This document shows positions 18,123-34,608 of a DNA stretch of 64,000 nt, piece after piece. The notes below the pieces were generated by a model. That model was not told the origin of the DNA, did not search any database, and saw nothing but the letters and a program-made list of their open reading frames with translations. Made by a program: the position numbers and the translations under genes. This stretch comes from Candidatus Saccharimonadota bacterium (lineage in GTDB: Bacteria > Patescibacteriota > Saccharimonadia > Saccharimonadales > Saccharimonadaceae): positions 129-64,128 of the forward strand of contig JAFRBR010000005.1 in assembly GCA_017404795.1 (NCBI GenBank). Reading direction: 5' to 3'. Every line of letters starts with the position of its first letter. Positions within the stretch are counted from its first letter, which is position 1.

Positions 18123-18671
18123 ATGCTGACCGTCACCCCTAGTGCACGCGTATCCAAACTCGAGCAGAAGGTTAAGGCCTTCGGAAAGCAAATTGCCACA
18201 GACGATCATCCTATGCCCGTCACCGTCAAGTCCTTCCCCTCGGTGTATTTCGAGGAGGATAGCTACGAAGGTCAAAACTACCCATTACTGAAGACCGAGT
18301 ACCGGACTTCGGACGGGGTTCATGGCTGTTCTGGCTTCACGCTGGACGAAATCCTCTGTCGTAATGCCGGAGACCTAACTGGGCGCACTTCCTGTGCATT
18401 CCTGAACGATCATTGCGCCATCCCCTATTGGCCTACCGTACACGAACTTCATGATCATATCATTGAAGTGGCGGAAAACTGGGAAAGCTGGGGACAAGGC
18501 GACTTCGGCGCGATGGTTTTCTCAGTCTTTATGGTAGAGGAACACACCGCCGACTGCTTGCGTGGCGTCTTGCGCAGATACCAGTATACCACCCACGAAG
18601 GACATCGGTTCCGTCATCATGAGACTGTTGATGAGGAGGTCATCATCCTCCTCCACCCCAACGACCGCTAG
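18123..18671 (+). CDS. Hypothetical protein (cassette A cargo), His/Cys-rich
   Basis: Strong SD before ATG 18123; no recognised family. Confidence 0.75.
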   Translation: MLTVTPSARVSKLEQKVKAFGKQIATDDHPMPVTVKSFPSVYFEEDSYEGQNYPLLKTEYRTSDGVHGCSGFTLDEILCRNAGDLTGRTSCAFLNDHCAIPYWPTVHELHDHIIEVAENWESWGQGDFGAMVFSVFMVEEHTADCLRGVLRRYQYTTHEGHRFRHHETVDEEVIILLHPNDR

Positions 18672-18690
18672 ATTAAAAAGGAGGCGCCAG

Positions 18691-18705
18691 ATGCCCTGGC
18701 CCTAA
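18691..18705 (+). CDS. Micro-ORF MPWP*
   Basis: AAAGGAGG (18677-18684), 6-nt spacer, ATG CCC TGG CCC TAA. Confidence 0.5.
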   Translation: MPWP

Positions 18706-18717
18706 AAGCAACTAAGC

Positions 18718-18814
18718 AGAAAAACACCCGAAGCTGGCGCCCCTGCGCCCCGCCTCGGTGGTACCCCGAGGTCGGCTTAGCGCTTCTTTGCGTCCCTACC
18801 CTCGGGGTTTTTCT
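18718..18814. repeat. 97-nt structured repeat, copy A
   Basis: Ends GAAAAACACCCGA / CTCGGGGTTTTTC, inner CCTCGG-tggtac-CCCGAGG; highly similar to 33235-33330. Confidence 0.9.
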
Positions 18815-18824
18815 TTCCCTACCC

Positions 18825-19229
18825 CTATCTATTATGATTCCAGTAAACAACCGCACCGACAAGGCTGGCAATCGTCATCATGCTACCAACCGCTACCAGC
18901 AAAATGTCGTTTTGATAGGAATTAATCGTAGCGGTGAAATTGATTTTGTCATAAAGGAACATCGTGTGGTCTCTTTGGCTGGTCGCCTCTTCGGTCCCGT
19001 TCAGCACGCACGGATAAGTATCCTGAATCACGGTTCCGTCGTTTTTTTCGTATAATTCTTCGTCAAAACAAAGCGCCGGAGCATCCGAAATCCCAATCAA
19101 ATTTTTCCTAAACTTAGCCAGCTCATTCACCCCGCAAAAAGTAATCACGCCAAACATTATCGCCATCAAAATCAGCAGCCCCGCGTTAATCTTGACTCTC
19201 GTGGAAGTTTTGTTGTTTTTTGTTGCCAT
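18825..19229 (-). CDS. Hypothetical membrane protein (2 TM)
   Basis: Two hydrophobic segments flanking a Cys-pair loop; AGGAG SD. Confidence 0.75.
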   Translation of the reverse strand: MATKNNKTSTRVKINAGLLILMAIMFGVITFCGVNELAKFRKNLIGISDAPALCFDEELYEKNDGTVIQDTYPCVLNGTEEATSQRDHTMFLYDKINFTATINSYQNDILLVAVGSMMTIASLVGAVVYWNHNR

Positions 19230-19303
19230 GTTCTCTCCTTTTGGGCTTTTGCCCGATTAATCCTTAGCTACATTATAGCATAAAGGTCAAGCTTACCTTC
19301 TCG

Positions 19304-21070
19304 CTATTTCTCTTCCAAAAAAGCTCCGCTCTGTCGTGACCAGAGCTTGGCATATTCCCCGCCGGCCTTTAATAGCTCCTGATGTGAACCTCGCTCCACA
19401 ATCAAACCGTTCTTCAGTACTATAATTTCATCTAATCCTGCGATTGTCGATAGCCGATGCGCTACCACAATGGAAGTCCGGTCTTTCATCAAATTTGCCA
19501 AAGCCCCCTGGATTAACCCTTCTGATTCCGAATCTAGCGCCGAGGTGGCCTCGTCTAGTACTAGTATCGGTGCATCTTTCAGAATCGCCCGGGCTATTGC
19601 CACCCGCTGTCTCTGACCACCAGACAATTTTACTCCTCGTTCGCCGACCAAGGTATCATAGCCATCCGGCAGCTCTTTAATAAATTCATCGGCATTAGCC
19701 AGCTTCGCTGCCTGCAGCACCTCCTCGCGCGTCGCATTTATCTTTCCATAAGAAATATTTTCGTAAATTGAACGATGAAACAGCGAAGATTCTTGAGGTA
19801 CATAAGCAATCGCTTCGCGCAAGCTTTTCTGGGTCACGTCGCGGATGTCTTTCCCGTCAATATAAATCGCCCCCTTCATTACATCATCAAACCTCAGTAG
19901 CAGTTTTGTTAATGTAGTTTTTCCTGACCCCGACACTCCAACCAGCCCAACACTCTTCCCGGCCGGCACATCTAGACTAAAATCATTGAACAGTGGTTCT
20001 TTTTGTTCGTTGTGTTTAAAGGTAATATGGGCAATTTCAATTTTAGCTTGAGCGATTTTCAAAGGCTGGTCAGTCTTATCGTCGACAATCAGCGGCAAAT
20101 CTAGTATCCCCACCATTTCTTTAGCGTTCCCTAGCGACCGATTGACGGATCTAAGGATGTGGTTAATCGTCCACACATTCGAAAGTAGCGAATTGGACAA
20201 AGAATACAAGAACACCATATTTGCAATAGTCAGCCCAAACCAATCATGGCTCATAATTATCAAAATTAGAAGTCCTGCAAAAGTCACCAGATTTATCGAA
20301 TTCATTGATAGATTCCGCCAAAACGACACTTTGGCCGCTCGGAAGGTCGCTTGTTTAGTCTGCTTAGTGGCCCCACTGAATCGAGTTTCTTCTAAATCTT
20401 CGCGAGCGTAGGACTTCACCGACATTTCGTTTGTAATCGCGTCCGCTAGTTGTCCAGTCTGCTTGTTCTCGGCATCCGCCAACGCTTCATCTACTTTACG
20501 CGTTTTATAATAAGTGGTTATTGCTACTACCATATATATTACTGTGTATATCGCCAAAATTCCCGCAAAAGGTGCACAAACTATCGCCGTTACTCCAATC
20601 GAATAAAACGCCGTCAATATCAATGGGTAAAGATCCCACACAAAATTAGATTTCAGGCTAATAAACGCCCCAGGCAATTTGTTGGCCGCGCTCGTCAGTG
20701 ACCCAGAGAATTTATCATTATGAAAAGTCATTGACTGGTTTATCACCGCCGTAAAAGCCAGTTTTGACAAATATTCTCCACCCAGCGCATCCAGCGACCA
20801 ATCTAGCCAGTCGATCGACCGAAGCACCACCAAATTATTTGCCGCCGCTGACAAAATAGTCAGTAGTAATATACTGGTATAATTCGCGATTTCAAAATCT
20901 CCGTCCGATAGCTTACCGATAATTTCCGAAGTACCATATGGCACCACCACATTTGATAAGAAAATCCAAACTGGAACTAATGCTAACAGCAAGATCGTCC
21001 TAATTTTGTGTTGCATTAGTGTCTGCCAAAAGTAATGCAGAGTCCGCTTGATATTTTTAGATTGTGCCAT
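19304..21070 (-). CDS. ABC transporter permease/ATP-binding protein (MdlB/MsbA-like)
   Basis: 6-TM domain, GVSGSGKT, LSGGQRQR, LVLDEATSALD. Confidence 0.95.
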   Translation of the reverse strand: MAQSKNIKRTLHYFWQTLMQHKIRTILLLALVPVWIFLSNVVVPYGTSEIIGKLSDGDFEIANYTSILLLTILSAAANNLVVLRSIDWLDWSLDALGGEYLSKLAFTAVINQSMTFHNDKFSGSLTSAANKLPGAFISLKSNFVWDLYPLILTAFYSIGVTAIVCAPFAGILAIYTVIYMVVAITTYYKTRKVDEALADAENKQTGQLADAITNEMSVKSYAREDLEETRFSGATKQTKQATFRAAKVSFWRNLSMNSINLVTFAGLLILIIMSHDWFGLTIANMVFLYSLSNSLLSNVWTINHILRSVNRSLGNAKEMVGILDLPLIVDDKTDQPLKIAQAKIEIAHITFKHNEQKEPLFNDFSLDVPAGKSVGLVGVSGSGKTTLTKLLLRFDDVMKGAIYIDGKDIRDVTQKSLREAIAYVPQESSLFHRSIYENISYGKINATREEVLQAAKLANADEFIKELPDGYDTLVGERGVKLSGGQRQRVAIARAILKDAPILVLDEATSALDSESEGLIQGALANLMKDRTSIVVAHRLSTIAGLDEIIVLKNGLIVERGSHQELLKAGGEYAKLWSRQSGAFLEEK

Positions 21071-21088
21071 GCTTATATTATGGCACGA

Positions 21089-22054
21089 TTATTTATCCCA
21101 GTCAAACCCTTCGCCGTAATGGCCCCACATAGCAGTTTTTTCGTAAATCGGCCGTCGCAAATCCAAAAACTTAATAATCCCCGCCGGTGTCAAATCGTAC
21201 CCCTCGATTTCTTCAGGTTTACTATCAATTAACACGGTCTTTTCCAGAGGTTCCGCGTAGCCAATGGCGTAGGCTAGCCGCACCAAGACTTCGTGCGCTT
21301 TGCGCTCCCGCAAATAATCCACCGCGATTTTGCGCGCCATGTAAGCGGCTGAGCGGTCTACCTTTGTCGCATCCTTACCAGAATAGCAGCCCCCGCCAAT
21401 CGCCACTCGTGGCCCGTAGTTGTCCACGATTAATTTGCGACCAGTCAGGCCGGTGTCGGCGTCAAATCCACCTTGGTTCCAATCGCCAGCAGGGTTGATA
21501 TGGAGCTCTAACTTGCCAGCCAGTTTTTTATTTTTGACAAATTCTTGTACCAATTTTGCTAGTTCGTCATGAGGCACATTTTGAAAACTTGCCACCACCG
21601 AATCCACAGAGCCATCCGGCGCCAAGGTTATTTGAGTCTTGCCATCATATGGGTGTTTATCAAAAATAAACTGATTCAGCCGCCGCGCCAAAATCACTTC
21701 CAGCGGCAACATCTCGTCGGTCTCGTCGCAGGCGTAGCCAATCATGATTCCTTGGTCGCCGGCGCCGCCCGTGTCTACGCCTTGGGCAATCTCTGGTGAC
21801 TGCTTGACGATTTTAGTGTGGACTTCTGCGTCATCACCAGCAATCCGTTTAACGATTGCCGGAATATCCATCTCGTCGGCCGTTGAAGTGACCTCGCCAG
21901 TCACAAATACCACTCCGTGCCCGCCACAAGTCTCTACCGCCACACGCGCCATCGGGTCGGTAGCTAAATACGCGTCCAAAATCGCATCGCTAATCTGGTC
22001 GCAAAGTTTATCTGGGTGTTTTGGAGAAACGCTCTCCGCCGTTCGATAGAACAT
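21089..22054 (-). CDS. metK: S-adenosylmethionine synthetase
   Basis: TAESVSPKHPDKLCDQISDA, GAGDQG, DGKTQ, GLTGRKLIVDNYG, SGKDATKVDRSAAY; true start MFYR at 22054. Confidence 0.97.
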   Translation of the reverse strand: MFYRTAESVSPKHPDKLCDQISDAILDAYLATDPMARVAVETCGGHGVVFVTGEVTSTADEMDIPAIVKRIAGDDAEVHTKIVKQSPEIAQGVDTGGAGDQGIMIGYACDETDEMLPLEVILARRLNQFIFDKHPYDGKTQITLAPDGSVDSVVASFQNVPHDELAKLVQEFVKNKKLAGKLELHINPAGDWNQGGFDADTGLTGRKLIVDNYGPRVAIGGGCYSGKDATKVDRSAAYMARKIAVDYLRERKAHEVLVRLAYAIGYAEPLEKTVLIDSKPEEIEGYDLTPAGIIKFLDLRRPIYEKTAMWGHYGEGFDWDK

Positions 22055-22143
22055 ATCTTTCCTTTCTTGGTCGGATTTACCACCTTGGTTTTCACTAGGT
22101 TGGCAGGGGGTCACCGGGCCGTTCCCTCACCCCTTCTTGATAT
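22053..22143 (-). ncRNA. SAM-I riboswitch aptamer upstream of metK
   Basis: AUAUCAAGA..GGGGUGAGGGAACGGCCCGGUGACCCC..GCCAACC..GGUGGUAAAUCC..AAAGAUAU aligns element by element with the SAM-I consensus (UUAUCAAGA, GAGGGAnnGGCCCGnUGA, GCAACC/GGUGC, AAUUCC, AAAGAU). Confidence 0.9.
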
Positions 22144-22160
22144 TAATATCCCCATTATAA

Positions 22161-22781
22161 CTATTTTTTGGATTTTTTACCAGCTTTTTTCCGAGTTGCC
22201 GACTTCCGCGCCACCGACCGAGCGGTCTTGTCTTCAATCCCCTGCGCACGGTTGTGCGCGCCATAAATCATACTCGTCACCCCCACAATCAGCATATACA
22301 CACCAAAGAAGCGCATGAAGGTCATCATCTCAAACCCACCCGCGTTCAAAATCACCAGGCCAATCACACAGCCAGCTGCCCCCGCCAAAATCCGGATAAA
22401 CCGATCGGTCGGGTCCACCGTCGACAAAAACCCATGAAAAATATCAATCACCCCAGACAGAATCGTGTAAACCGAAATAATCACCACTCCTAGTACCAAA
22501 TTGTTCTTAGCAAAGAAGAGTAGCGCCACCGCCGCTATTACATCAATCAACGCATCGATAATCGAATTAATCCAGCCGTGCTTCTTGGTCGACGCATAAA
22601 GCGCGCCCACCGCATCCACAATCCCCATCGACAGTAGAAAAACACTCGCCAGTGCAACAATATTGTCTACTTCCGTCATCCCGCTAAACAAAATCACACA
22701 ACCAAAGGCGATTGCTAGCCCCCCGCGGATTAAAAACATTAACCAATGTTTGTCAATATATTTTCGATTTATCTTTGCCAT
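22161..22781 (-). CDS. HdeD/DUF308 family membrane protein
   Basis: W.MFLIRGGLAIAFG start, ~6 TMs, basic tail. Confidence 0.75.
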   Translation of the reverse strand: MAKINRKYIDKHWLMFLIRGGLAIAFGCVILFSGMTEVDNIVALASVFLLSMGIVDAVGALYASTKKHGWINSIIDALIDVIAAVALLFFAKNNLVLGVVIISVYTILSGVIDIFHGFLSTVDPTDRFIRILAGAAGCVIGLVILNAGGFEMMTFMRFFGVYMLIVGVTSMIYGAHNRAQGIEDKTARSVARKSATRKKAGKKSKK

Positions 22782-22919
22782 AAAAATCCTTTATTACTTA
22801 TGCTCATTATAGCACAAATTTTATGTCATTTTCAAAAATTATGCTATAATCAAAGTGCAACGATTTTATAATTTACGTGTACCGAGATTTTAATATCGAT
22901 ACGCAATACGAATTTAAAG

Positions 22920-23054
22920 ATGGCACCACAAGGTGATCCGAATTCAGCGTCCAGAAAGAATATGGATTATAGATATTTTAGCGCCACTACTACGGGTGGA
23001 GGCAGCAATGATAGATTTAGAGGTCTTACAGCTCGTTGCATCGCTGATAATTAA
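22920..23054 (+). pseudogene. Remnant 3' end of a FISUMP/CLec-type gene
   Basis: Reads ...SASRKNMDYRYFSATTTGGGSNDRFRGLTARCIADN*, alignable to the tail at 1-295; an orphan TGCTATAAT promoter lies at 22842-22850. Confidence 0.5.
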
Positions 23055-23056
23055 CT

Positions 23057-24271
23057 CTACACCCGCCGAATCCTCTTCCGCGCCGATTCAATTAACTTAG
23101 TTTTTTGATAAATTAGTGGCTTCAAGATCAGATCATGCGCCGGAGTATAGCGGAGCTCTTCACAGCCGAACGAACGCTTGAATTCGGAAACCCCATAGAA
23201 CCGATGGGTCGTCTCCTCCGGCTCCACTATCCCCCACAGATTATAGCGGATGCAGCCTCGCTCCCTAGCCTCCTTCATCGCCGCCATGTGGAGTAGCGGC
23301 GCCGCCGAATACTTTGTCCCCAGCTCCGACGATACTCCGTAATGATAGCTCGCTTCCGGCCCATAAAAAATCATAAAATTCTGCGCCAAAACTTCCCCGT
23401 CCTTCTTCGCAGTGTAGATTAACACCTCTCCGCCCTCGCGGAAGGCTTCAAATTGCTTGCGCAGGAAATCACTCGAAAACGCCACATATTTTTGTCGCTC
23501 AGCGTGCAATTTTTCTAATCGGCAAAATTCGTCAATCGCCTGATCACTAGTCTCGGCCGCAATTTCGATTTCGTTCTTTTCGGCTTTGCGTAGTTTGCGT
23601 CGGAAACCTTGCGACGCTCCGGCCAGAATCTCTTCCTCCGACTTCCGCAAATCCAGTACTCCAGCAAACTCCACCGATAGATACATTGGTGCTCGCTTCA
23701 GGCCTAGCTCCCGCATTAGCGCCAAAGATTTATCTGATAGCTCCAGCTGCGGCCGTACTCGCACAAACACACAGCCAGTCTCTAAACCTTGCGCCTCGAT
23801 ATCGTCAAACACTGCCTTTACCGCCTTATCGTCCTCCCAGTCCATAATCGGCCCACCGGCAATCGCCAAGTATTTGCCCCGCTTAGCCGTTTCCACTACC
23901 CCAGCATACGCCGCCACAATTTTATTATCCTCATCTGTCAGTGCTCTTCGAACTATCTTTTTCCCTCGCGCCTTATGGAACTCGTAAAAATCCCACGACT
24001 GCAAGAAATTCGCCTCAGGATGCGAAGTAATAAACCGGTCCCAAGTAGAACGATTGTCGATATTAGTAAGGCAAAGTGTTTTATCGCAATCGAGGGGATT
24101 TCGGAGCGCGGCAGCGCGAGAGTTAGCGCGCGAGCCCCGTGGCGGACTGCCGGAGGAGTCGAGCGAAGAACGAACTAGTTCGTTCTTCCGAGATGACAAC
24201 TGGCAGACGACATCAGTCGACGGGCGCGAGCGACGCGACCCGAGATGCGATGAAACACTTTGCCTATTCAC
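23057..24271 (-). CDS. FemAB/FemX family peptidyltransferase with a 65-aa N-terminal in-frame insertion
   Basis: FLQSW.F, GGP..DW, FRRKLRKA, YHYG.S, YNLWG, FKRSFG motifs; GTG start overlaps the upstream TGA. Confidence 0.9.
   Translation of the reverse strand: MNRQSVSSHLGSRRSRPSTDVVCQLSSRKNELVRSSLDSSGSPPRGSRANSRAAALRNPLDCDKTLCLTNIDNRSTWDRFITSHPEANFLQSWDFYEFHKARGKKIVRRALTDEDNKIVAAYAGVVETAKRGKYLAIAGGPIMDWEDDKAVKAVFDDIEAQGLETGCVFVRVRPQLELSDKSLALMRELGLKRAPMYLSVEFAGVLDLRKSEEEILAGASQGFRRKLRKAEKNEIEIAAETSDQAIDEFCRLEKLHAERQKYVAFSSDFLRKQFEAFREGGEVLIYTAKKDGEVLAQNFMIFYGPEASYHYGVSSELGTKYSAAPLLHMAAMKEARERGCIRYNLWGIVEPEETTHRFYGVSEFKRSFGCEELRYTPAHDLILKPLIYQKTKLIESARKRIRRV
24070..24264. repeat. In-frame palindromic element (195 nt) in femAB
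   Basis: Arms GGCAAAGTGTTTTATCGCA / TGCGATGAAACACTTTGCC; cores GCGAGCCCCGT and GACGGGCGCGAGCG; inner perfect palindrome GAAGAACGAACTAGTTCGTTCTTC. Confidence 0.9.
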
Positions 24272-25284
24272 AATCGCCTCCGTTTCTTCCGGACCTTTTC
24301 TACTACTAAGTCTTTTAGGTATCCCACGCGCGAAATTACTAGGTCGTGGGCTGGTACGTATTCTACCACCGAGCCCCCAAACCCCGTCTTAAAGGTCGTC
24401 ACCCCAGCATAGCGGTGCCCCGGCTGCCCAGCCGGTGCAATCCCCCAGAGGTTAAATCGCTCATACCCCTCGGCCTTCAAATCCCGCATCGCCTGCCAGA
24501 GCAAAGCATACGCCCCAGGGAGTTTGCGATTCAAATCGGTCGAGGCCGCCTCGTAATAATCTCCTTCGCGCCCATCCTTTATTATCAGGCCATAAGCCAC
24601 AGGTTCTCCCTCGGCTGTTCGCGCCACATAAATCGCAAAATTGTCCCCAAAAGCTTCCCTTTCTGCCAGCAATACCTCTAGTGACGGCGGCACAAACCCC
24701 TGTCGCCGCGCCGTCTCCATCTGTACCTGGTGGAATTCGCGCAAAATCTCCTCCGAATCATCCCGCTCTACCGTAATCCCCAGTTTACCCGCTCGGCGCA
24801 CCTCGTAGCGAGTCTGTCGTCGCATTCCAGCCAGTAATTCTTCCTCGGATAAACTGAGATCTATCATCACTGTGTGCTCGGCCGCTAGGTGCATCGGTGA
24901 TTTTTTCAGCCCCATTCGTTCCAAAACCTCCAAATTCTCGCGGTTAGCCAGAAGTTGTGGCCTCAGTCGCACAAACACACATTTTTCCTTCTCCGCCACC
25001 TCAGTAATCCGGCTCATCACTTCTTTCACTAGCCCTTTATCACCCCAGTCAATCAGTGGCCCACAAGGAATCTCCAGATAGCGTCCTCGCTTGGCATTGC
25101 GCACTACCATTATCGCCCACCCCTTACCGCCAAAATCTTCACTCACCACCTTGGCCCCCATCAGCTCATTCATCCGCCCATAAGCCGGCGACTGCAAGAA
25201 GTTCGCCTCAGGGAATTCCTCAATTGCCTCTCGCCACCCCGCCTCTGTGATCGTGAATTTGGCTGCCTTATTGTTATTTTTCAC
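24268..25284 (-). CDS. FemAB/FemX family peptidyltransferase
   Basis: FLQSP.Y, CGP..DW, MRRQTRYEVRRA, FNLWG, FKTGFGG motifs. Confidence 0.92.
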   Translation of the reverse strand: MKNNNKAAKFTITEAGWREAIEEFPEANFLQSPAYGRMNELMGAKVVSEDFGGKGWAIMVVRNAKRGRYLEIPCGPLIDWGDKGLVKEVMSRITEVAEKEKCVFVRLRPQLLANRENLEVLERMGLKKSPMHLAAEHTVMIDLSLSEEELLAGMRRQTRYEVRRAGKLGITVERDDSEEILREFHQVQMETARRQGFVPPSLEVLLAEREAFGDNFAIYVARTAEGEPVAYGLIIKDGREGDYYEAASTDLNRKLPGAYALLWQAMRDLKAEGYERFNLWGIAPAGQPGHRYAGVTTFKTGFGGSVVEYVPAHDLVISRVGYLKDLVVEKVRKKRRRL

Positions 25285-26491
25285 GTCCCCCCCTAGTATC
25301 TCTTAACAAATATTTCTCAATAATCTTTAGCGCTGGCGCTAAATCCGCCTTGCTGTAATATGTCGGCAAATTGATGATATGCTTCGCCACAAACACCGAA
25401 TTCGGGCAATTCTCCTCTGGGAAGTGGACTTTTTTGTAATATCTCTCGGGTGACACCGGCCGTTCATACCAGAATCCACCAAAATAATACCCTGCCTTCT
25501 GTAATTCTCGCAAAACTTCACCCCTATTCTGCACCAAACAGAACTTCCTCAGAGGCGCCTCACCAGATTTTTTAAACTTTTTAAACTGTTTCAAAGCTAG
25601 CCGGGCCTCAAATTTGCTGATTTTGCGCTCCAAGTCTAATCTGTTGTCTGCTGATTTTTCTACCCAGTGAATCTTGACTAACCCTCGCATCAAAGCGCCC
25701 CCAAGATGTACAGAGGCTAGCCCCCGACAAACCGTCCCAAAAAATGGATAAAATCTCGCCCTCAAGTGGTCTGACAATTTCGGAAGTTTGCTAGGCGCTT
25801 TAATCTCGCGTTTACAGGGGTGGCGTAGTACCACCGCTCCACCAGACACCGTGTCTATTGCTTTGTCCTTACCAAACGAAAACACCGCCGCCGCTCCCAC
25901 CGTCCCCGCCTCGCGTCCATCGGCGTATTTCACCCCTGCCGAATGTGCTAAATCCTCGATTATAGTCAACTCGTGCTTCCTGGCAAAGGCCTCAACTTGC
26001 TTGACATCCACCGGATTCCCTAAACTGTTTTGGATAATAATTCCAGCAATTTTCCGGGCGGGTCCTGCCGGCTCTTTTCCTCCCCAAAAATTTTTACTTC
26101 GTAAAACATTTTTGGGGTTCCCCCCAGAGCCGTCACCCGCCCGTGTGACCTGCAGTAAACTCAAGTCAAAATTCAAATCCTCTCTAGAAACATCCGTCCA
26201 AATAGGAGTAAGCCCCGCGGATTTCACCGCCTCATATACCGCATAACAGGTAAACCCATTCACGATCACCGCGTCCCCAGGCTCAAAATATGCCATCAAG
26301 GCCAAACAGAGGGCCGAGCGTCCATTTTTACACAAAACCACCCTAGTATCCTCTGTCGATTCACCCCCGTACCGTCCCCGCAAATACTTTTTTAGCGCTC
26401 GACAATCACTTTTCCGCCCCATGGCAAAAGTATGTCGCCATACTTCCCCTGTAGAATATCCCGCAGCCATCCCTAGAAAATACCGCTTCAC
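25274..26491 (-). CDS. DegT/DnrJ/EryC1/StrS-like PLP-dependent aminotransferase with a 30-aa insertion
   Basis: NGRSAL, FTC.AV, IIEDLAHSAG, FSFGKDK..D.VSGG, INLPTY. Confidence 0.88.
   Translation of the reverse strand: MKRYFLGMAAGYSTGEVWRHTFAMGRKSDCRALKKYLRGRYGGESTEDTRVVLCKNGRSALCLALMAYFEPGDAVIVNGFTCYAVYEAVKSAGLTPIWTDVSREDLNFDLSLLQVTRAGDGSGGNPKNVLRSKNFWGGKEPAGPARKIAGIIIQNSLGNPVDVKQVEAFARKHELTIIEDLAHSAGVKYADGREAGTVGAAAVFSFGKDKAIDTVSGGAVVLRHPCKREIKAPSKLPKLSDHLRARFYPFFGTVCRGLASVHLGGALMRGLVKIHWVEKSADNRLDLERKISKFEARLALKQFKKFKKSGEAPLRKFCLVQNRGEVLRELQKAGYYFGGFWYERPVSPERYYKKVHFPEENCPNSVFVAKHIINLPTYYSKADLAPALKIIEKYLLRDTRGGREK
26055..26143. repeat. In-frame long hairpin in the aminotransferase gene
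   Basis: CGGGCGGGT/ACCCGCCCG, CGGCTCT/AGAGCCG, CCCCAAAAAT/ATTTTTGGGG, TTTTAC-TTC-GTAAAA nested stems. Confidence 0.8.
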
Positions 26492-27252
26492 TAGATTACT
26501 CCCTCCTTTTTTGGCGCAGGTTTCTTGAAAGTAGCTTTTGTATTCTTATCATTTTCGTTCTTGGCTTCGGGCTCCTTTTTCATCCTCTCTATCAATATAC
26601 CAATAGCTCGGGCCAGCCCCTCTGGATCCGAAATATATGGCGCATGGGTCCAATTAGCATAGAACTTCAGTTCTGCATTGGGTAATTTCTCATACATCTC
26701 TGTAGCCTGCCGAGGTGGCGTGGTAGTGTCCTTCTTGCCCCAGAGGATAAAGGTCCTTGTTTCTACCTTGGTAAGGTCTAATTCTTTATCTGATTCCAGC
26801 ATATTAGCCAAAGTTTTCTTCATATTCTCTGGCGCCTTGGAATAATCTGTAGACCCCGTCACACGGTGGAAACCCTTGTCTACTAGAGGTATTTTTTTCA
26901 GTGGCTGTCCAATTTTGGCTAGTTTTTCCACTATTTTCTTGCGCATTGACGGCTCATACACCCCCGCCGAATCCAGCAAAATCAAATATTTCAGCTTCCC
27001 TGATTTCTGAGCACAGAGGTTCAGCAAAATCCGGCCCCCGTTACTATGCCCTAGTGCCACCGCTCCGTCAGGGATTTCTCTGTCAGCCCACTTCATATAG
27101 TCATAGATTGTCCACTCCTTCTTTGACTCCTCTGTTAGCCCCGGCACATGCAGCATTTTGACGCTAATCCCCTTGTCGCGCAACAGTGAAATCGTTTCCT
27201 TCCACGGCTCCACCGTGTAAGTCCACCCATGAATTATGTACAAATCCGCCAC
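26491..27252 (-). CDS. Alpha/beta hydrolase
   Basis: IHGW, GHSNGG nucleophile elbow, LWGKKD, WTHAP. Confidence 0.92.
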   Translation of the reverse strand: MADLYIIHGWTYTVEPWKETISLLRDKGISVKMLHVPGLTEESKKEWTIYDYMKWADREIPDGAVALGHSNGGRILLNLCAQKSGKLKYLILLDSAGVYEPSMRKKIVEKLAKIGQPLKKIPLVDKGFHRVTGSTDYSKAPENMKKTLANMLESDKELDLTKVETRTFILWGKKDTTTPPRQATEMYEKLPNAELKFYANWTHAPYISDPEGLARAIGILIERMKKEPEAKNENDKNTKATFKKPAPKKEGVI

Positions 27253-27268
27253 TAAAAACCTCCTTTCA

Positions 27269-28537
27269 TCAATCTAACCCCCAACTTTTACGTCTAGCTA
27301 CCGCGGCCTTTTCTCGCCGGCATAATTTGTCCGCATCAGAGGGGTCGGCTAGTAGCTTCTCGACCACCCATTCTAGATATTGGCTCCCCTTAAAAATCAA
27401 AGTCTCCGTTCCTCTAACATTCTTCTTGATATATTCCAAGGCTTTCCTGGGGTCAGTCGTTGCCACCGCCGAAATACCCAGTTTCTTTAGTTCCGGTGCC
27501 GTGTACTCCTTAGTCCGCCGCCCTACTAGCACTACTTTGTCCGGTTTTACTCTGGCAATCAAATCCGCCAACCGCCGATGCTCCTCCTCCGCTAGCGACC
27601 CCTGATCGACAATATCCCCAATCACCAGCCACTTTTTCTCTGCGTGCATCCTTTTCGCCATATCTAGGGTCGAAGCCATGCTAATCATGTGCGCATTGTA
27701 GCTACAATCCACAATATCTATCCCCTTATACCCCTTAAAATGCGAACTTCGCCCCGGCGCCACTTCCATCCCGGTGAAATCAGGATTAAACTTTAGTTTC
27801 AGATATTTCATCAAATCCTGCAACACGAACAGATTGAACGCCACGTCCTTTGGCTCTGGTCGGTCAAAATGAAAAGTCGTATCCCCATAGGTAAAATCAG
27901 TCGAATCAGGGTAAACTACGTATTTTTTCATCTCCGTCTTCTTGATTGGAATCACTTGAGCCTTGACTCCCTTGGTCGCCTCTACCATCAACCTAGAATC
28001 TGCATCGATATACACTCGCTTGCTCGTATTGGCTGGCAAATTAGCAAATTCTGCTGTAATCGCCTCTGATAAATCTTTGAATTTACCTTCTTCCACCACT
28101 CTTTCAAACTGCACCGCATGGGATAAACCTATCGATACCCAAATCGTCACCTCTGGGCGCAGCCACTCTGCCAGGAATTCCGCCTCGTGCGGGCGTTCAC
28201 CGTCAATCTCTACCACGTAGTACCTCTGTTTATGGCGTTTAATCAGCCCCTTAATCGGCGCCATGATAAACAGATAAATCCAGCGCAGTTTAGACCCAGT
28301 CACCCCCTTTAGCCCTAGCAAATCAAACGAAATTCCAAAAGCACTATTAGCATTATGTGAATAATGCGCCTTATCCCCCATTTCAAACTCGATCATGTTC
28401 AGCATCGTAGTCTTACCAGCCGAGCCCGTCACCGCTACTGTTCGCGGATTCCACCTCTTATACACTCGATTCGCAAAATGCCGAAAATACTTCGCCGCAA
28501 CAAAGTAAAACCGTTTCTTGTAACTAGAAACACTCAT
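27269..28537 (-). CDS. murF: MurF-like Mur ligase (lacks the usual N-terminal domain)
   Basis: VAVTGSAGKTT, DCSYNA, VIGDIVDQG, FKGSQ correspond to MurF motifs. Confidence 0.75.
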   Translation of the reverse strand: MSVSSYKKRFYFVAAKYFRHFANRVYKRWNPRTVAVTGSAGKTTMLNMIEFEMGDKAHYSHNANSAFGISFDLLGLKGVTGSKLRWIYLFIMAPIKGLIKRHKQRYYVVEIDGERPHEAEFLAEWLRPEVTIWVSIGLSHAVQFERVVEEGKFKDLSEAITAEFANLPANTSKRVYIDADSRLMVEATKGVKAQVIPIKKTEMKKYVVYPDSTDFTYGDTTFHFDRPEPKDVAFNLFVLQDLMKYLKLKFNPDFTGMEVAPGRSSHFKGYKGIDIVDCSYNAHMISMASTLDMAKRMHAEKKWLVIGDIVDQGSLAEEEHRRLADLIARVKPDKVVLVGRRTKEYTAPELKKLGISAVATTDPRKALEYIKKNVRGTETLIFKGSQYLEWVVEKLLADPSDADKLCRREKAAVARRKSWGLD

Positions 28538-28585
28538 ACTCTCTATTATACCTTATTTATGCGTAAATTCTTAGAAAAAATCCGC

Positions 28586-28774
28586 CAGATTGGTATTTTC
28601 TCCGAGTGAAGCGCGTCTATTGGACGAGCGAAATTCCGAAAAAGGTGAGATGTGTAGTTGTCGTAATTTGCCAATTAAAATCGCACAGATTGCCTTTTGA
28701 GGAATTGAAGCGCGTCTATTGGACGAGCGAAATTCCGAAAAAGGTGAGATGTGCGATTTTAATGGCAAATTTAC
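28586..28774. repeat. Tandem intergenic palindromic elements downstream of rpsJ
   Basis: Identical 48-mer at 28607-28654 and 28706-28753; 25-nt inverted arms at 28663-28687 / 28750-28774. Confidence 0.9.
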
Positions 28775-29100
28775 ATGCGGATTTCGGCGTCTACGCCAGC
28801 CGGGAGGGATAGGTTTTGCAAGCTCTCGATCGTCTTCGGTGTAGCATTAGAGATATCAATCAGCCGTTTATGGACTTTCATTTCAAACGCTTCCCCGCCA
28901 GTCTTATAGACGTGAGGTGACTTAACCACGGTAAAAGTAGACCGCTTGGTCGGCAGAGGAATCGGCCCCGAAACGCTTGCCCCAGTCCGAATTGCCGTGT
29001 CCACAATCTGTCGAGCACTCTGGTCAATTACTCGGTGATCGTAAGCCTTCAGCCGAATCCGAATGGTCAGCCCAGTATCTTTTTCTTTTTTATCTGCCAT
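28771..29100 (-). CDS. rpsJ: 30S ribosomal protein S10
   Basis: [33 protein letters not shown]. Confidence 0.98.
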
Positions 29101-29311
29101 AATTTGTTGTCCTTTCTGCTCTATAACCTCAGGTTCGCCCCTAGACAGGCCGCCGGTGAGTAGTTAGAGCTAGATAATTAATTTACTTGTAGCCCCATTA
29201 TACCACACTCTGCCAAAAATGCAAATCAAGCCCCCAAGTTGACAAAAACGCTCCCCAGTGGTATAATTGAGTCAACTATTGGGCAGTCTATAATTGAGGA
29301 AGGAGATTACT

Positions 29312-29833
29312 ATGCCCACGCACGTTACAGATGCAAGTACGTCCAAGTATCCAGTAGAGCAATTAAAGCCCTATTATAAGGCTTTGCTTTACATGGCTGA
29401 GTTGCCAAAGTATTGGGTTGCGTACGACTACCGGCTCGAAGAGTTTTTTGACAAGGGCCACCCGATCATTTCCAGTCAACCACAAGAATTCAAGGATTTT
29501 TGCGAGGCCTATGAGATGGTCTGTCGGGCCTCTGCCAGGCTTGACATTGAGCAGGGACTCAACTACCGCATGTTGCGCGCTCTCGCTCGCAATCTGTACT
29601 ACGGTGGAGCTCGTCGGAGTTTTTACATTAGATATTTGGAGGGGCAAATCGACCAACTCTCCAAAATCTCCGAGCCCGTAACTATTGTCGGAATCGAAGA
29701 AAGGTACCAATACTACATTTATCGGAAGGAGCGTAATCACAAAGGTCTTGGTATTGGCCCCAACTTTGAGACTTGGAAACAAGAGGGCGGCTGCCCCGTC
29801 ACTTTCTACAGCATCATGTCTTACCGAAAGTAG
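29312..29833 (+). CDS. Hypothetical protein (Tyr-rich orphan)
   Basis: Own TTGACA-N17-TATAAT promoter and AGGAG SD; no recognised motif. Confidence 0.7.
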   Translation: MPTHVTDASTSKYPVEQLKPYYKALLYMAELPKYWVAYDYRLEEFFDKGHPIISSQPQEFKDFCEAYEMVCRASARLDIEQGLNYRMLRALARNLYYGGARRSFYIRYLEGQIDQLSKISEPVTIVGIEERYQYYIYRKERNHKGLGIGPNFETWKQEGGCPVTFYSIMSYRK

Positions 29834-29876
29834 ACTCAAGTCCAACCAGTATTAAAAGCGTCTTAACTTGCATCAA

Positions 29877-29903
29877 AAAGCCACCCTCATGTAGGGTGGC
29901 TTT
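29877..29903. terminator. Bidirectional terminator between the orphan gene and tuf
   Basis: AAAGCCACCCT / AGGGTGGCTTT. Confidence 0.85.
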
Positions 29904-29915
29904 CTCAGGCTCAAA

Positions 29916-31100
29916 TTATTTGATAACCTTGGTGATGACACCAGAACCAACGGTCTTACCGCCTTCGCGGATCGCGAAGCGGTCGTTGTCGTTCATCGCG
30001 ACTGGCTGGAGCAATTTGACCTTGAAGGTCACTTGGTCACCAGGCATCACGATTTCCTTGTCGGCTGGTAGCTCTACCTCACCCGTCACATCAGTGGTAC
30101 GGAAGTAGAACTGAGGCTTATAGCCCTTGGAGAACGGAGTGTGGCGGCCGCCTTCTTCCTTCTTCAAGATGTAAACCTCTGCCTCAAACTCGGTATGCGG
30201 AGTAATCGTGCCTGGCTTGGCAATCACCTGACCACGCTCGATTTGGTCGCGTTCAATACCACGGAGCAAGAGACCTGCGTTATCGCCAGCTTGGCCCTGA
30301 TCCAAAGTCTTGTGGAAGGCCTCAATACCGGTCACTACGGACTTTTGAGTGTCTTTCAGACCAACAATCTCAACTTCGTCGTTTAGCTTGATCACACCCT
30401 GCTCGATACGACCAGTAGCCACGGTCCCACGGCCTTTAATTGAGAACACGTCCTCAATTGGCATTAGGAACGGCTTGTCAAGATCGTGCTCAGGTACTTC
30501 AAAGTATTCATCCATCGCCTTGACGAGCTCCATCACTGCGTCTTCGTTTTCTTTGTCACCCTCAAGAGCCTTAGTAGCGGAACCCTTGATGATTGGCGCA
30601 TTGTCGCCATCAAAGCCGTACTTGTTCAAAAGCTCACGGACGTCCATTTCTACTAGTTCTACTAGTTCAGGATCAGCGAGGTCCATTTTGTTCAAAAATA
30701 CGATGATTTTTGGTACGTTTACCTGGTGAGCCAAAAGTACGTGCTCACGAGTTTGTGGCAACGGGCCATCATTAGCAGCTACCACGAGGATAGCGCCATC
30801 TACCTGGGCAGCACCGGTAATCATGTTTTTGATGTAGTCGGCGTGGCCTGGCATGTCAACGTGCGCATAGTGGCGCTTGTCGGACTCATACTCCTGGTGT
30901 GAAGTCGCGATAGTAATACCGCGGGCCTTTTCCTCAGGCGCGTTATCAATTTGATCATAAGCGACAGGCTTGTTAACATCCGAAGGTAGGCGATCAGCCA
31001 ACACCTTGGTGATAGCAGCCGTCAAAGTGGTTTTTCCATGGTCTACGTGACCCATGGTGCCAACATTGATATGTGGCTTGGAACGGTCAAAATTTGCCAT
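29916..31100 (-). CDS. tuf: Elongation factor Tu
   Basis: [34 protein letters not shown]. Confidence 0.99.
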
Positions 31101-31444
31101 TCTTTCTCCTTTTTATTAATTACGGTTGGAGCGCTAATAAAAACCAGCTCCAAGACTCTACCCTCTTATTTTAGACTATTTTTGGCAAATTGTAAAGAGG
31201 CTATTTTGTTATTTTAAAAAAACTTCATTCTGACTAAAAAATCCTCGGTTACTTAGAACCGGGGACGGGTCCGCTAAATCCCTCAATTGAGACCAAATAT
31301 TACACATATCTTGACAAAATAAACCTTTTGTGCTAAAATTAGAAGACAAATTGGCAAGGGGCAATTTAAGCACATTAATATTGGATTCTAGGTAGAAAGG
31401 CATATTAGTCTAGGCAAAGAACAGAGAGATAAGGTGGTAATGAA

Positions 31445-32095
31445 ATGAGCAATGTAATTGAATTTAAGGTGGTGAGCAGTCGGCAGAAAACGCACAATAA
31501 TCGTAATGTTGTCAAGACTATTCAGATTCCGCGCAAAGAGGTAATGGTCTGCGCAAGTCCAATTCAAGTAGAACGAGTTGGCTGGAATATGATTTCAATC
31601 GGCTTTTGGCTGGATTGTTTCGAGCCGAATCTCGTTGACCTTGCTATGAGGCAAGTTTGCCATGCACAGTATGAGCTCTACAAGGTTGGACGCGATAATC
31701 CAAGCTACGAGCCCATGCGGTCGACGTTCATCGTGCGAGTAGTTGGGGATTATTCCCTTTCTGAGACGGACGAAATCCTTACTCAGATTGCGGCCCTGTC
31801 GGCCAAAGAGGCCTATTTGAAAGAAATCAGCATGCGAGGCAGCAAGGTGGATGTGTCCGAACTTGCAACCCCCTACGCGGCCGATCCTTTTAACGGTTCG
31901 ATCGTCAATCGCAAAACTGTGGCTATTTTGCGAAGAGCCGGTATTCAAAACGCTTACGAAGTGGCAAAAAACACTCGCGAGACGATCTGCCAGCTTCCTG
32001 GTATAACCACGAAGGAGGTATACAAGCTCGAAAAAAGCTTAGCTGCAAGAGGAATCTATCTCAACGCAGCCGCGGTGCCAAGTTGGAGCGAATGA
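31445..32095 (+). CDS. Hypothetical protein with C-terminal RNA polymerase alpha-CTD-like (HhH) domain
   Basis: C-terminal ..AILRRAGIQNAYEVAK..ETICQLPGITTKEV..LEKSLAARGIYL resembles alpha-CTD. Confidence 0.65.
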   Translation: MSNVIEFKVVSSRQKTHNNRNVVKTIQIPRKEVMVCASPIQVERVGWNMISIGFWLDCFEPNLVDLAMRQVCHAQYELYKVGRDNPSYEPMRSTFIVRVVGDYSLSETDEILTQIAALSAKEAYLKEISMRGSKVDVSELATPYAADPFNGSIVNRKTVAILRRAGIQNAYEVAKNTRETICQLPGITTKEVYKLEKSLAARGIYLNAAAVPSWSE

Positions 32096-32113
32096 CCTCA
32101 CCCAGAATCACAA

Positions 32114-32140
32114 AAAGGCCGTCCCGCAGGGACGGCCTTT
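32114..32140. terminator. Bidirectional terminator
   Basis: AAAGGCCGTCCC-GCA-GGGACGGCCTTT. Confidence 0.85.
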
Positions 32141-32152
32141 AATTATGCAAAA

Positions 32153-32695
32153 TTATTCGCCGGGGGTTGCGTCAACGGATCCGGTCTCAGTGCTGGTCTC
32201 AATAGATGTGCCTTTTTCTTGCTCATTAGCATCAGCCTGAGTGGTCGCTGGCTGAGTTTCAAGCCTTTCTGTGCCACGGAGAGCGGTTTCGCCCGCTTTT
32301 TTGTTGCGATTAACTTCACTCTTTTGGCGTAACATCTGTGCCATGTTTTCAAATACGTCAGCCAATTCGCGATCGATGTAACTGGCCTGCTCGTACGTAT
32401 CAAAGCCAGATTCCATAAAATTAGGGTCATGTCGACGATCTACGGCTTCATCAACATTATTAAAATGCCCACGCTCCTCATCGAGTTCATCTAGAAAAGC
32501 ATTTACTTCTTGGGTTTCTGGGCTATTATTAACAGGGGTAATTTCCGCACGTACCTCTGGTTTTTGAGGCTCTTCGCGGCGAAATCCGTCTGCCTCGATA
32601 CCAGCATATTCTTGGTCTAGCGCACTGTCGCTCATCCTCTTCGCGTTGGGGTTTGTCAAGGCTTCATCGACATTGTTCAATCCTTCTCTATTCAT
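32153..32695 (-). CDS. Acidic hypothetical protein
   Basis: GGAG SD before ATG 32695; E/D-rich, internal NNVDEA duplication. Confidence 0.7.
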   Translation of the reverse strand: MNREGLNNVDEALTNPNAKRMSDSALDQEYAGIEADGFRREEPQKPEVRAEITPVNNSPETQEVNAFLDELDEERGHFNNVDEAVDRRHDPNFMESGFDTYEQASYIDRELADVFENMAQMLRQKSEVNRNKKAGETALRGTERLETQPATTQADANEQEKGTSIETSTETGSVDATPGE

Positions 32696-32803
32696 AAGTA
32701 TTATCTCCATTAAATTGTTATTGCCCTTATTATAACACATTTTCTATAATGAGAACCATTAACTCAATGGACTTGTAAAAAGAAAGATTTTATATAAAAC
32801 CCA

Positions 32804-32946
32804 TTGACAAAAATAACTATGTGTGCTATAATATAAACAATAAGCAAGAGTTTTACTGCTTAGTAAATTAAGAACCAATTTAGTTGTGAGTTGTGAGTTG
32901 TGTTTCATTCCGGGTTGGACCAGGAGGTCCAGAAAGGAGGCCATCT
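32804..32946 (+). promoter_or_regulatory. Cassette B promoter and conserved leader
   Basis: TTGACA(32804)-N17-TATAAT(32827); TAAGCAAGAGTTTTACTGCTTAGTAA; hairpin GGACC-AGGA-GGTCC directly before AGAAAGGAGG. Confidence 0.85.
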
Positions 32947-33087
32947 ATGGCCACGCAGAAGAAGGACGTCTTCGAGACTTCGTATAAGAACCGTCAGGAA
33001 ATGCAGCGCGATGTGCTGCGGCTCGCCGCCGACAAGGGCTGGCGAACGATTCAGGCGAAGGGTGAACAGATGATCATCCGCCGCTAG
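32947..33087 (+). CDS. 46-aa small protein (cassette B cargo)
   Basis: AGAAAGGAGG SD then ATG: MATQKKDVFETSYKNRQEMQRDVLRLAADKGWRTIQAKGEQMIIRR. Confidence 0.7.
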   Translation: MATQKKDVFETSYKNRQEMQRDVLRLAADKGWRTIQAKGEQMIIRR

Positions 33088-33123
33088 CCCGCCCCTGCAG
33101 ACGGACCATGAAAGGAGTGGCCA

Positions 33124-33141
33124 ATGAAGACTTGGCCTTGA
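33124..33141 (+). CDS. Micro-ORF MKTWP*
   Basis: AAAGGAG (33111-33117), 6-nt spacer, ATG AAG ACT TGG CCT TGA. Confidence 0.45.
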   Translation: MKTWP

Positions 33142-33179
33142 CGCTGCAAAAATCGTAAATGAAAGGAGGTGCCCAAACT

Positions 33180-33194
33180 ATGTTTTGGCCTTAG
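33180..33194 (+). CDS. Micro-ORF MFWP*
   Basis: AAAGGAGGT (33162-33170), 9-nt spacer, ATG TTT TGG CCT TAG. Confidence 0.5.
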   Translation: MFWP

Positions 33195-33234
33195 CTCACG
33201 CGGGTAACGCCCGCGCCCCATACAACTGAATATT

Positions 33235-33330
33235 GGAAAAACACCCGAGGTCGGCGCCCTGCGCCCCGCCTCGGCGGTACCCCGAGGTCGGCTTGCGCAC
33301 TCTAGCGCCCCTTACCCTCGGGGTTTTTCT
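33235..33330. repeat. 97-nt structured repeat, copy B
   Basis: Homologous to 18718-18814, with the stems preserved. Confidence 0.9.
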
Positions 33331-33417
33331 TACCTCAAAAAACAAAAGAAACCCCCCGGTCGATTGACCGGGGGTGCTTGAGCCACCCAAGAGAGTCCAT
33401 AAAGGCTCAAAGAGGTT

Positions 33418-33717
33418 TTACCAAGGGGTACCGTCATGCTTCAGCATCGGGATTTCCTCGTACTTCCCAGAGGTGGTGTTGTGCTTATTGCGGAAGTTGC
33501 CTTTCGCAAAGTACCACCCCTCTGGGTAATAGAGAGTTTCCGGGTCGGCATCGGTGATAATTATCCCCGCTGCGGGCAGCGACATTTGGTTAAACGGATG
33601 ATATCGCATGTACTCAACTTCCATCGGGTTGAGTGCAGCAAACAGGTTGGCCGCCAAGCTAGCAGCCAGGTCAGCCGTTTTCACCGTAAGTTGGTTAGAT
33701 TTGGATTTCTTACCCAT
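33418..33717 (-). CDS. Hypothetical protein
   Basis: GAGGT SD; 99 aa; no recognised motif. Confidence 0.6.
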   Translation of the reverse strand: MGKKSKSNQLTVKTADLAASLAANLFAALNPMEVEYMRYHPFNQMSLPAAGIIITDADPETLYYPEGWYFAKGNFRNKHNTTSGKYEEIPMLKHDGTPW

Positions 33718-34594: not shown

Positions 34595-34608
34595 ATGCCC
34601 CCAAAGAA

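Follow-up and report, generated by a model that had tools for sequence, protein, structure and literature searches.

In Bacillus subtilis, the untranslated regions (UTRs) at the 5′ and 3′ ends of the hbs messenger RNA (mRNA) are joined by a helix of 14 bp, and a ribosome initiating at its strong Shine-Dalgarno (SD) sequence stands in the way of RNase J1 and RNase Y (Braun, Durand & Condon 2017, PMC5737220). In the STAB-SD elements, known from cry3A (Agaisse & Lereclus 1996), an SD alone can stabilise the RNA downstream of it and block RNase J1 (PMC4113751). Here we describe two transcription units in a 64,000-nt stretch of the genome of a Candidatus Saccharimonadota bacterium (contig JAFRBR010000005.1; this whole stretch is referred to as the window) that bring features of both kinds together. 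The EF-Tu and EF-G encoded in the window belong to 90%-identity protein clusters that bear the NCBI name Candidatus Saccharibacteria. Unit A (18001-18816) and unit B (32804-33332) are paralogous except for the encoded protein, the cargo. Downstream of the cargo open reading frame (ORF) each carries one or two SD-led micro-ORFs that end in Trp-Pro-stop, and its leader pairs with its 3′ UTR in a long-range helix. This RNA architecture is real and previously undescribed; a literature search on Saccharibacteria transcriptomes and noncoding RNA yielded no description of such a chassis.

The likeness to hbs comprises a small monocistronic mRNA expected to be strongly expressed, a structured leader, a helix of some 14 bp that links 5′ and 3′ UTR, and an SD that is very strong. 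In hbs, however, the protective ribosome sits at the main start and there are no SD-led mini-ORFs in the 3′ UTR, whereas here the chassis is common to unrelated cargos; moreover, a part played by RNase Y and RNase J would be hypothetical for the present units. As in a STAB-SD, an SD of the GAAAGGAGG type that does not start a real gene could hold a 30S subunit. STAB-SDs are located near the 5′ end, lack a start codon and are untranslated. In the modules, by contrast, a partly paired SD within the 3′ UTR precedes an AUG (at a distance of 6-10 nt in all variants), after which come 3-4 codons and a stop. Minigenes (lambda bar; axe-txe, PMC8708949; the LEE1 leader, PMC3262186) likewise consist of a strong SD and an ORF of 2-6 codons inside a larger transcript, and their translation affects the neighbouring gene via peptidyl-tRNA drop-off or start occlusion. 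With 4-5 sense codons and canonical SD and spacing the micro-ORFs fall within the structural definition of a minigene, but the known ones lie upstream of or inside operons, whereas these come after the ORF and before helix and terminator. Finally, a C-terminal proline slows termination, and arrest at the stop codon is established for TnaC, PepNL and MsrDL (PMC11890864, refs 67-70). These are short ORFs too, whose last residue could hamper the release factor, with prolyl-tRNA in the P site as in TnaC; they differ in their 6-24 residues, their position upstream of the regulated gene and a peptide conservation that goes beyond RNA pairing (PMC11890864). The modules described here follow the cargo ORF, and the next gene is convergent. 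Judged by analogy, the units would in their working be most like hbs plus a STAB-SD, being members of neither the STAB-SD nor the arrest-peptide class.

The micro-ORFs of the window are contained in three modules:

18677-18705 (+): module A, with SD AAAGGAGG (18677-18684), extended hairpin (18682-18703) and ORF MPWP-stop (18691-18705); sequence AAAGGAGG-CGCCAG-ATG CCC TGG CCC TAA

33111-33141 (+): module B1, with SD (33111-33117), hairpin GGCCAA/UUGGCC (33119-33137) and ORF MKTWP-stop (33124-33141); sequence AAAGGAG-TGGCCA-ATG AAG ACT TGG CCT TGA

33162-33194 (+): module B2, with SD (33162-33169), extended hairpin (33167-33192) and ORF MFWP-stop (33180-33194); sequence AAAGGAGG-TGCCCAAACT-ATG TTT TGG CCT TAG

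A preliminary description of this DNA had reported the same three ORFs, and their coordinates and sequences match the window; its gap of 6-9 nt between SD and ATG holds for A and B1 (6 nt each) but not for B2 (10 nt). A scan of the plus strand for AGGAG-N4-11-ATG opening an ORF of at most 8 codons returned three matches, all of them ending in Trp-Pro, and the same scan of the minus strand returned four ORFs unrelated to this trio. A comparison with shuffled sequence gave a mean of 0.002 Trp-Pro micro-ORFs in 500 dinucleotide-preserving shuffles of the window against the three observed, and any such ORF occurred in only one of the 500. The pattern is far beyond chance in the window, with the reservation that the three are paralogous copies in two paralogous units and not independent events.

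An AAAGGAG(G) SD is present in all modules (the 16S gene lies outside the window, and complementarity is assumed from the SDs of real genes); in sequence and spacing it resembles those of real genes of the window genome. Ordinary genes of the window have A-rich, unstructured spacers and no start hairpins, whereas the five starts of the units carry hairpins. The ATG had been placed within a small hairpin in each module, and these hairpins were recovered, that of B2 with one C·U mismatch. Upon folding of each module (-12.2, -8.8 and -6.9 kcal/mol for A, B1 and B2 in listing order) the stems extend further outward than previously described: past a bulge of one base, AGG of the SD (GGAGG) pairs with C(C/U)U, made up of positions 2-3 of the Pro codon and the base that opens the stop. 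The extended stem amounts to -12 kcal/mol in the A type and to -6 to -11 kcal/mol in B2, and the extension in B1 is made of G·U and A-U pairs only. The micro-ORFs are modules composed of a strong SD, an AUG-enclosing hairpin that pairs the 3′ half of the SD, and a stop directly after the hairpin, and with them the 3′ part of the chassis begins.

Of the module variants, 18 of 18 retain AUG, frame and stop. The constraint is apparent from the cargo, which is only 51-73% identical between orthologues that keep AUG, frame, Trp-Pro and stop. Unit A orthologues read MHWP (L001, L003, L004, L023) or MTWP (L006) with TAA or TAG stops, and MPWP with CCU occurs in one run. For B2, MFWP is found with CCC and TAA (L001) or CCC and TAG (L016), and MIWP in runs X5, X11 and X13-X15; B1 varies by ACU to ACG (L017) and by UGA to UAA (X5, X14). 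Codon 2 is therefore variable (P, H, T in the A type; F, I in B2), as are the third positions of the Thr and Pro codons. The use of all three stops, already noted for the window, recurs in orthologues that switch among TAA, TAG and TGA, with at least five switches in total (UGA to UAA, UAG to UAA, UAA to or from UAG). Indels adjoin the micro-ORFs and none falls inside (deletion of 33172 or 33174 in the 5′ arm; insertion of CUAG after the stop in L006). Within unit A, identity is 88% for the micro-ORF module, 86% for the other 3′ UTR, 82% for the leader and 73% for the coding sequence. The number of modules per unit ranges from 0 to 2: unit B of L001 has B2 but lacks B1, and in a low-coverage X10 contig the SD of B1 is apparently lost. 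The 3′ elements at 18720-18816 and 33237-33332 share CCCUGCG substitutions not seen in orthologues of other genomes, a distribution that suggests gene conversion between units within one genome; such conversion would inflate the apparent conservation.

The preliminary description had read the synonymous variation as selection on translation of Trp-Pro-stop and had named RNA structure as the competing explanation. In each module, UGG-CCY-U is wholly complementary to AGG-N-GCCA of the module's own SD region, so that synonymous variation cannot tell coding from pairing and does not support selection on the peptide, and pairing accounts for UGGCCYU. The third base of the Pro codon is C or U only, never A or G, exactly as pairing to G (G-C or G·U) would require. 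The pentamer UGGCC also forms the 3′ arm of the main-start hairpins of units B and C (the latter found in relatives, see below), where a different frame applies and gives AUG GCC (Met-Ala). In one run (X12), UGG of B1 is changed to UAG, giving MKT-stop and breaking the Trp codon and one stem pair at once. These observations, along with orthologues that lack a module, weaken the case for selection on Trp-Pro-stop further. Trp-Pro is retained in 17 of 18 variants, but the pairing with AGG-N-GCCA confounds any conservation at the peptide level, and Trp-Pro is probably a by-product of the hairpin arm UGGCC(Y)U being read in that frame. The start and stop codons behave differently: in B1 and B2 the second and third stop bases take no part in pairing, yet every variant has a stop, and in the A-type loop AUG is fixed while the other two bases vary (AUGCC, AUGCA, AUGAC, AUGCU). 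The invariant AUG, the stop-to-stop switches, the indels that spare the ORF and the gene-like SD spacing constitute moderate evidence for initiation, and ribosomes rather probably do initiate at these sites.

The second hallmark of the units is the helix between leader and 3′ UTR, formed by the following segments:

18073-18085 (+): 5′ strand of the unit A helix, UCUGUUAGUUGUU, complementary to 18707-18720

18707-18720 (+): 3′ strand of the unit A helix, AGCAACUAA(G)CAGA, beginning 1 nt past the micro-ORF stop

32875-32887 (+): 5′ strand of the unit B helix, CCAAUUUAGUUGU, pairing with 33222-33236

33222-33236 (+): 3′ strand of the unit B helix, ACAACUGAAUAUUGG, a conserved motif with covariation; pairing as ACAACUGAA(UA)UUGG

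In each of units A, B and C the helix consists of 13 bp and a bulge, and in this respect it is of the hbs type. Its outer four pairs differ by unit yet remain complementary (UCUG:CAGA in A and C, CCAA:UUGG in B); in L006 they read UUGU:ACAG with a one-base register shift and two G·U pairs, and in L016 a U·G of the helix is replaced by C-G. All mismatches are G·U on the plus strand, which speaks for a helix of the sense transcript rather than inverted repeats of the DNA. In an alignment of the helix strands, fitted by leaving out the bulged bases, 96% of the cells are paired, compared with 21-49% after sliding the partner by 1-3 columns. Changes on both sides occur in 4 of 13 pairs. The covariation score is 0.426; shuffled alignments give 0.188, and none of 500 shuffles reaches 0.426. 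The helix is present in the minimum free energy structures of all 11 mini-units and in the RNAalifold consensus of both the A type and the B type, and has a pairing probability of about 0.99 in the folds of the full 781-nt and 494-nt transcripts. Since 8 of 57 random segments of the window likewise give at least 8 end-to-end pairs at a probability above 0.9, this thermodynamic figure is not special and the claim for the helix rests on the comparative evidence. RNAduplex energies of leader against 3′ UTR did not discriminate from shuffles, as long loops inflate the shuffled energies. Two further pairings were rejected: one would lengthen the unit A helix as far as the Pro-stop (UAGGC of the leader with GCCCUA) and is not kept in L003 and L004, and the other, between an anti-SD CCUCCUCC at the end of cargo A and the micro-ORF SD, is not kept in L006.

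The remaining features of both units are as follows:

18001-18029 (+): promoter of unit A, TTGACA, 17 nt, TATAAT, with TG before the -10; 12/12 consensus, kept in orthologues

18039-18058 (+): 5′-terminal hairpin of unit A, AAGCAA/UUGCUU, a few nt past the predicted transcription start

18110-18130 (+): main SD (AAAGGAG) and start hairpin GUCAGC-UAU-GCUGAC of unit A, from folding

18123-18671 (+): cargo ORF of unit A, 182 residues, with seven homologues of 51-99% identity

18720-18816 (+): 3′ element of unit A, four CCGAGG/CCUCGG segments with an A-run on the left and a U-run on the right; covariance-model match of 111 bits

32804-32832 (+): promoter of unit B, TTGACA, 17 nt, TATAAT, with TG before the -10; 12/12 consensus

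32841-32862 (+): 5′-terminal hairpin of unit B, in a leader homologous to that of unit A

32933-32952 (+): main SD and start hairpin GGCCA-UCUA-UGGCC of unit B, with UGGCC read as A-UG GCC (Met-Ala)

32947-33087 (+): cargo ORF of unit B, 46 residues, basic

33199-33215 (+): G+C hairpin CGCGGG-UAACG-CCCGCG between B2 and the helix, pair probability about 1.0

33237-33332 (+): 3′ element of unit B, paralogous to 18720-18816; covariance-model match of 115 bits

Occurrences of the 5′-terminal hairpin motif in the window are limited to units A and B, and the hairpin is predicted in all orthologues. Unit A contains the motif GCAACUAAGCAGA between micro-ORF and 3′ element. Taken together, nearly every base of the transcript falls in a hairpin, the long-range helix, an SD or a translated stretch.

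The 3′ element is about 95 nt long, G+C-rich and ends in a U-run; its core is identical between units A and B at 37 of 38 positions. It holds four mutually complementary segments (CCCGAGG, CCUCGG, CCCCGAGG, CCUCGGGG) that allow nested or tandem folds, and in both folds a stem precedes the U-run. The covariance model built on it gives a weak score on the minus strand too and finds no further copies in the window beyond those of A and B. The gene after each unit is convergent in every case, and there is no co-oriented downstream gene. With a terminator stem in both folds, the element lacks the alternative required of an attenuator and is read, on these model folds, as a twin-hairpin bidirectional terminator. 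Searches with the Rfam covariance models assigned no family to unit A or B at the gathering score and gave nothing credible at E values up to 10, the only matches in the window being an S-adenosylmethionine (SAM) riboswitch and three tRNAs.

Homologues of the 182-residue cargo number seven (51-99% identity), all from ENA or Logan assemblies, and their contigs carry the whole unit including the micro-ORF; the runs that bear these loci are gut, bovine, sheep and compost metagenomes. The covariance model of the 3′ element additionally revealed a unit C in relatives (L016:136-750), with promoter, leader and 3′ end of the A/B type, an unrelated cargo of 112 residues and an A-type module encoding MHWP-stop. 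At least three further cargo ends are joined to the B-type 3′ UTR at 33097, 33106 and 33146 (contig ends, other runs). As far as sequence comparison goes, this is a reusable expression chassis with exchangeable, unrelated cargo, forming self-contained cassettes in gut Saccharibacteria. Variable islands harbour the chassis. One such island separates fusA from tuf, and in some strains the island adds genes for Bro-N and HNH-repeat proteins. In the window, the fusA-tuf pair of the str operon is split by an island of about 3.5 kb (31100-34609) that contains hypothetical genes and unit B; in other strains this island also holds unit C, an HNH-repeat gene and a Bro-N/HTH (helix-turn-helix) gene, and it looks like a hypervariable insertion hotspot.

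The 182-residue cargo has no match in Pfam, NCBIfam, PHROGs or PADLOC. Foldseek returned nothing at E ≤ 0.001 and no PDB-fold match for its AlphaFold model, which is of mediocre quality (predicted local distance difference test score, pLDDT, of 60). A profile search with the seven cargo-A proteins produced no additional homologues, and one with cargo B produced one homologue only. Exact-pattern scans for the 3′ element gave 0 and then 2 chance matches in GTDB genomes (metagenome-assembled genomes of a Caulobacterales and an Acidimicrobiales member), 3 unrelated G+C-rich matches in JGI metagenomes and 0 in IMG/VR, the lineage being accessible via ENA and Logan assemblies only.

What the modules might do on such a transcript can be pictured by analogy with hbs and STAB-SDs, and the reading that we put foremost, if tentatively, is that they are STAB-SD-like decoy initiation sites with a minimal ORF, through which an hbs-like closed-loop mRNA would retain a ribosome on its 3′ UTR. 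The loop would consist of the 5′ hairpin, the leader/3′ UTR helix of at least 13 bp, the hairpin-embedded starts and the twin-hairpin terminator. The module would load a ribosome, which perhaps or even probably comes straight from the end of the cargo ORF 20-25 nt upstream, and hold it on the otherwise naked spacer adjoining the closing helix; release after 4-5 codons would occur before the ribosome meets and unwinds helix and terminator. As a result the 3′ UTR would be protected and the stability of the mRNA coupled to its translation, as for hbs in B. subtilis, and slow termination at Pro-stop would be a bonus and not the selected feature. It is from the observed anatomy, its conservation, the covariation of the helix and the modularity that we infer such loading, protection and coupling. 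Several points weigh against decoy initiation sites on a closed loop. Three SD bases are tied up in the hairpin (-7 to -12 kcal/mol), so that initiation may be weak. The modules are dispensable: none is present in L013, L014 and one X11 contig, where (G/A)G(G/A)CCCUAACCC stands between cargo stop and helix strand (in L013 a GGCCCUAA remnant lies directly 3′ of the cargo stop). Given the 5′ location and lack of translation of STAB-SDs, the parallel with them is an analogy only. For the helix, the fitting of the alignment by removal of bulged bases and the comparable folds of random segments have to be borne in mind, and the RNA runs that were searched for the loci contain none of them.

Translation could also play no part at all, the modules being untranslated, SD-sequestering hairpins, copied from the initiation hairpin of the cassette and serving as structural, operator or protein-decoy sites at the helix junction with AUG and stop tolerated or inherited. 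We regard this as possible but doubtful. Three SD bases and all of UGGCCYU are paired in the extended stem, the main starts of units B and C are similar to the module (AAAGGAG-GGCC..UGGCC), CCCUA(R) of the A type can pair with UAGG of the leader (a third stop base of A or G pairing with U either way), and both the copy number of 0 to 2 and the shared CCCUGCG substitutions within one genome, with possible gene conversion inflating conservation, would be compatible with it. Hairpins of this kind would, however, leave it unaccounted for that AUG is invariant in loops whose other bases vary, that the unpaired last two stop bases of B1 and B2 always yield a stop and do so through switches (UGA to UAA, UAG to UAA), and that a perfect SD stands at canonical spacing, which is hard to explain without ribosomes; furthermore, the main start of unit A has another stem (UCAGC/GCUGA), and one protein would not recognise all sites. 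The varying cargo/chassis junctions (33097, 33106, 33146), the GGCCCUAA remnant of L013 and the 0-2 modules per unit would suit functionless leftovers of initiation regions after cassette recombination or cargo deletion, but such neutral scars are very unlikely, as no other part of unit A is as well conserved as the module (88%, compared with 73% for the coding sequence), which is retained in at least three cargo contexts. The remaining proposals (peptide products, CsrA-type or ribosome sponges, attenuator leader peptides, minus-strand terminators) are, even taken jointly, most improbable. They can point to the strong SD, to the hairpin and CCUCCUUUU flagged on the minus strand by a terminator scan and to the attenuator-like complementarity of the four segments in the 3′ element. 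For the sponge and peptide-product readings of the preliminary description no supporting evidence emerged and the anatomy speaks against them: a peptide would have a freely varying codon 2 and no context of export or processing, and for a CsrA/Rsm sponge GGA lies 5′ of or inside the stem instead of in a loop, with only 1-2 copies per RNA. An attenuator is contradicted by both conformers of the 3′ element, which keep the terminator stem before the U-run, and by the next gene always being convergent; a minus-strand terminator by its U-run, which is either set apart from the stem by GCCUCC or no more than 3 U in length.

If, on the contrary, translation of the modules is what matters in itself, they might encode an arrest peptide, fMet-X-Trp-Pro-tRNA resisting hydrolysis by the release factor so that the ribosome stalled at the stop gates structure or stability of the mRNA; in detail, it would keep the inner half-helix open in unit A, abut 33199-33215 in unit B and possibly respond to a ligand or to the release factor. 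In favour of this, 17 of 18 variants preserve Trp-Pro-stop even though codon 2 and the stop used are variable, the stem core GCCA/UGGC never covaries whereas the leader hairpin of the same units does, and the stop of unit A lies 1 nt 5′ of the helix 3′ strand. Motifs of the WPP type were reportedly selected as stallers in E. coli screens. We nevertheless judge arrest unlikely in view of the complete explanation of UGGCCYU by pairing with AGG-N-GCCA and the restriction of the Pro third base to C or U, the Met-Ala reading of UGGCC at main starts, the Trp-to-stop variant (X12) and the units without a module. Moreover, there is no co-oriented downstream gene to regulate, 4-5 residues are very short for intrinsic arrest, and a terminating ribosome would fall short of the helix in L013 and in unit B. 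A related scheme, in which the SD-led ORFs of 4-5 codons would capture ribosomes finishing the cargo, carry them to the helix junction and release them slowly at Trp-Pro-stop beside the main start, as a relay or recycling device or as translation-gated opening of the helix, strikes us as quite improbable. The earlier suggestion that a parked ribosome could protect or gate downstream structure is, for its part, in keeping with the anatomy: the stop of unit A lies 1 nt upstream of the helix 3′ strand, and a ribosome with the stop in the A site would extend into the inner half of 18707-18720. In unit B such a ribosome would abut the 33199-33215 hairpin, and in L013 the cargo stop is 11 nt from the helix strand; a general role as helix opener is therefore not supported.

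A number of other elements were noted along the way. Relatives, but not the window, contain a consensus promoter that leads into about 770 nt of G+C-rich sequence without a called gene and a terminator beside a tRNA (L024:11917-12725; also L003:4253-5095 and L004:1675-2067). This element, which starts some 1.2 kb past unit A and shows conservation of 79-86% from contig to contig, matches no Rfam family and is a candidate large noncoding RNA. The SAM riboswitch mentioned above (22050-22146, minus strand, 61 bits) lies just upstream of, and overlaps, the listed 5′ end of the ORF 21089-22114 (minus strand), and in a relative of 99% identity the gene matching this ORF is S-adenosylmethionine synthetase. 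A perfect direct repeat of 48 nt, its two copies beginning 99 nt apart (28607-28654 and 28706-28753), is present in intergenic DNA upstream of rpsJ, and a G+C-rich repeat of 30 nt, TCGCTCGCGCCCGTCGT(C/T)ACGGGGCTCGCT, at 39530-39559 and 49407-49436 (97% identical, about 9.9 kb apart). The motif AATTATAGCATAAA recurs at 9878-9917, 17679-17718, 19259-19284, 22793-22818 and 36770-36797; it is the reverse complement of an extended -10 (TGCTATAAT), and these sites are thus probably promoters of minus-strand genes with a very uniform consensus.

Saccharibacteria and other bacteria of the candidate phyla radiation are mostly uncultured, and their post-transcriptional control is almost undescribed. The units presented here provide a compact and reusable chassis in such an organism, consisting of a consensus promoter, a 5′ hairpin, a UTR helix, hairpin-embedded starts, mini-ORFs in the 3′ UTR and a bidirectional terminator, and the family supplies a definite sequence set for telling coding constraint from pairing constraint by experiment. 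Should the ribosome in fact stall at termination, the modules would represent a minimal arrest peptide, and if relay with slow release at Trp-Pro held true, fMet-X-Trp-Pro would be among the shortest intrinsic termination-arrest peptides known. If instead the mini-ORFs load ribosomes as decoy initiation sites, the protection by initiating ribosomes known from STAB-SD and hbs would be extended to 3′ UTRs, and the chassis would be a natural design for a portable stabiliser of mRNA.

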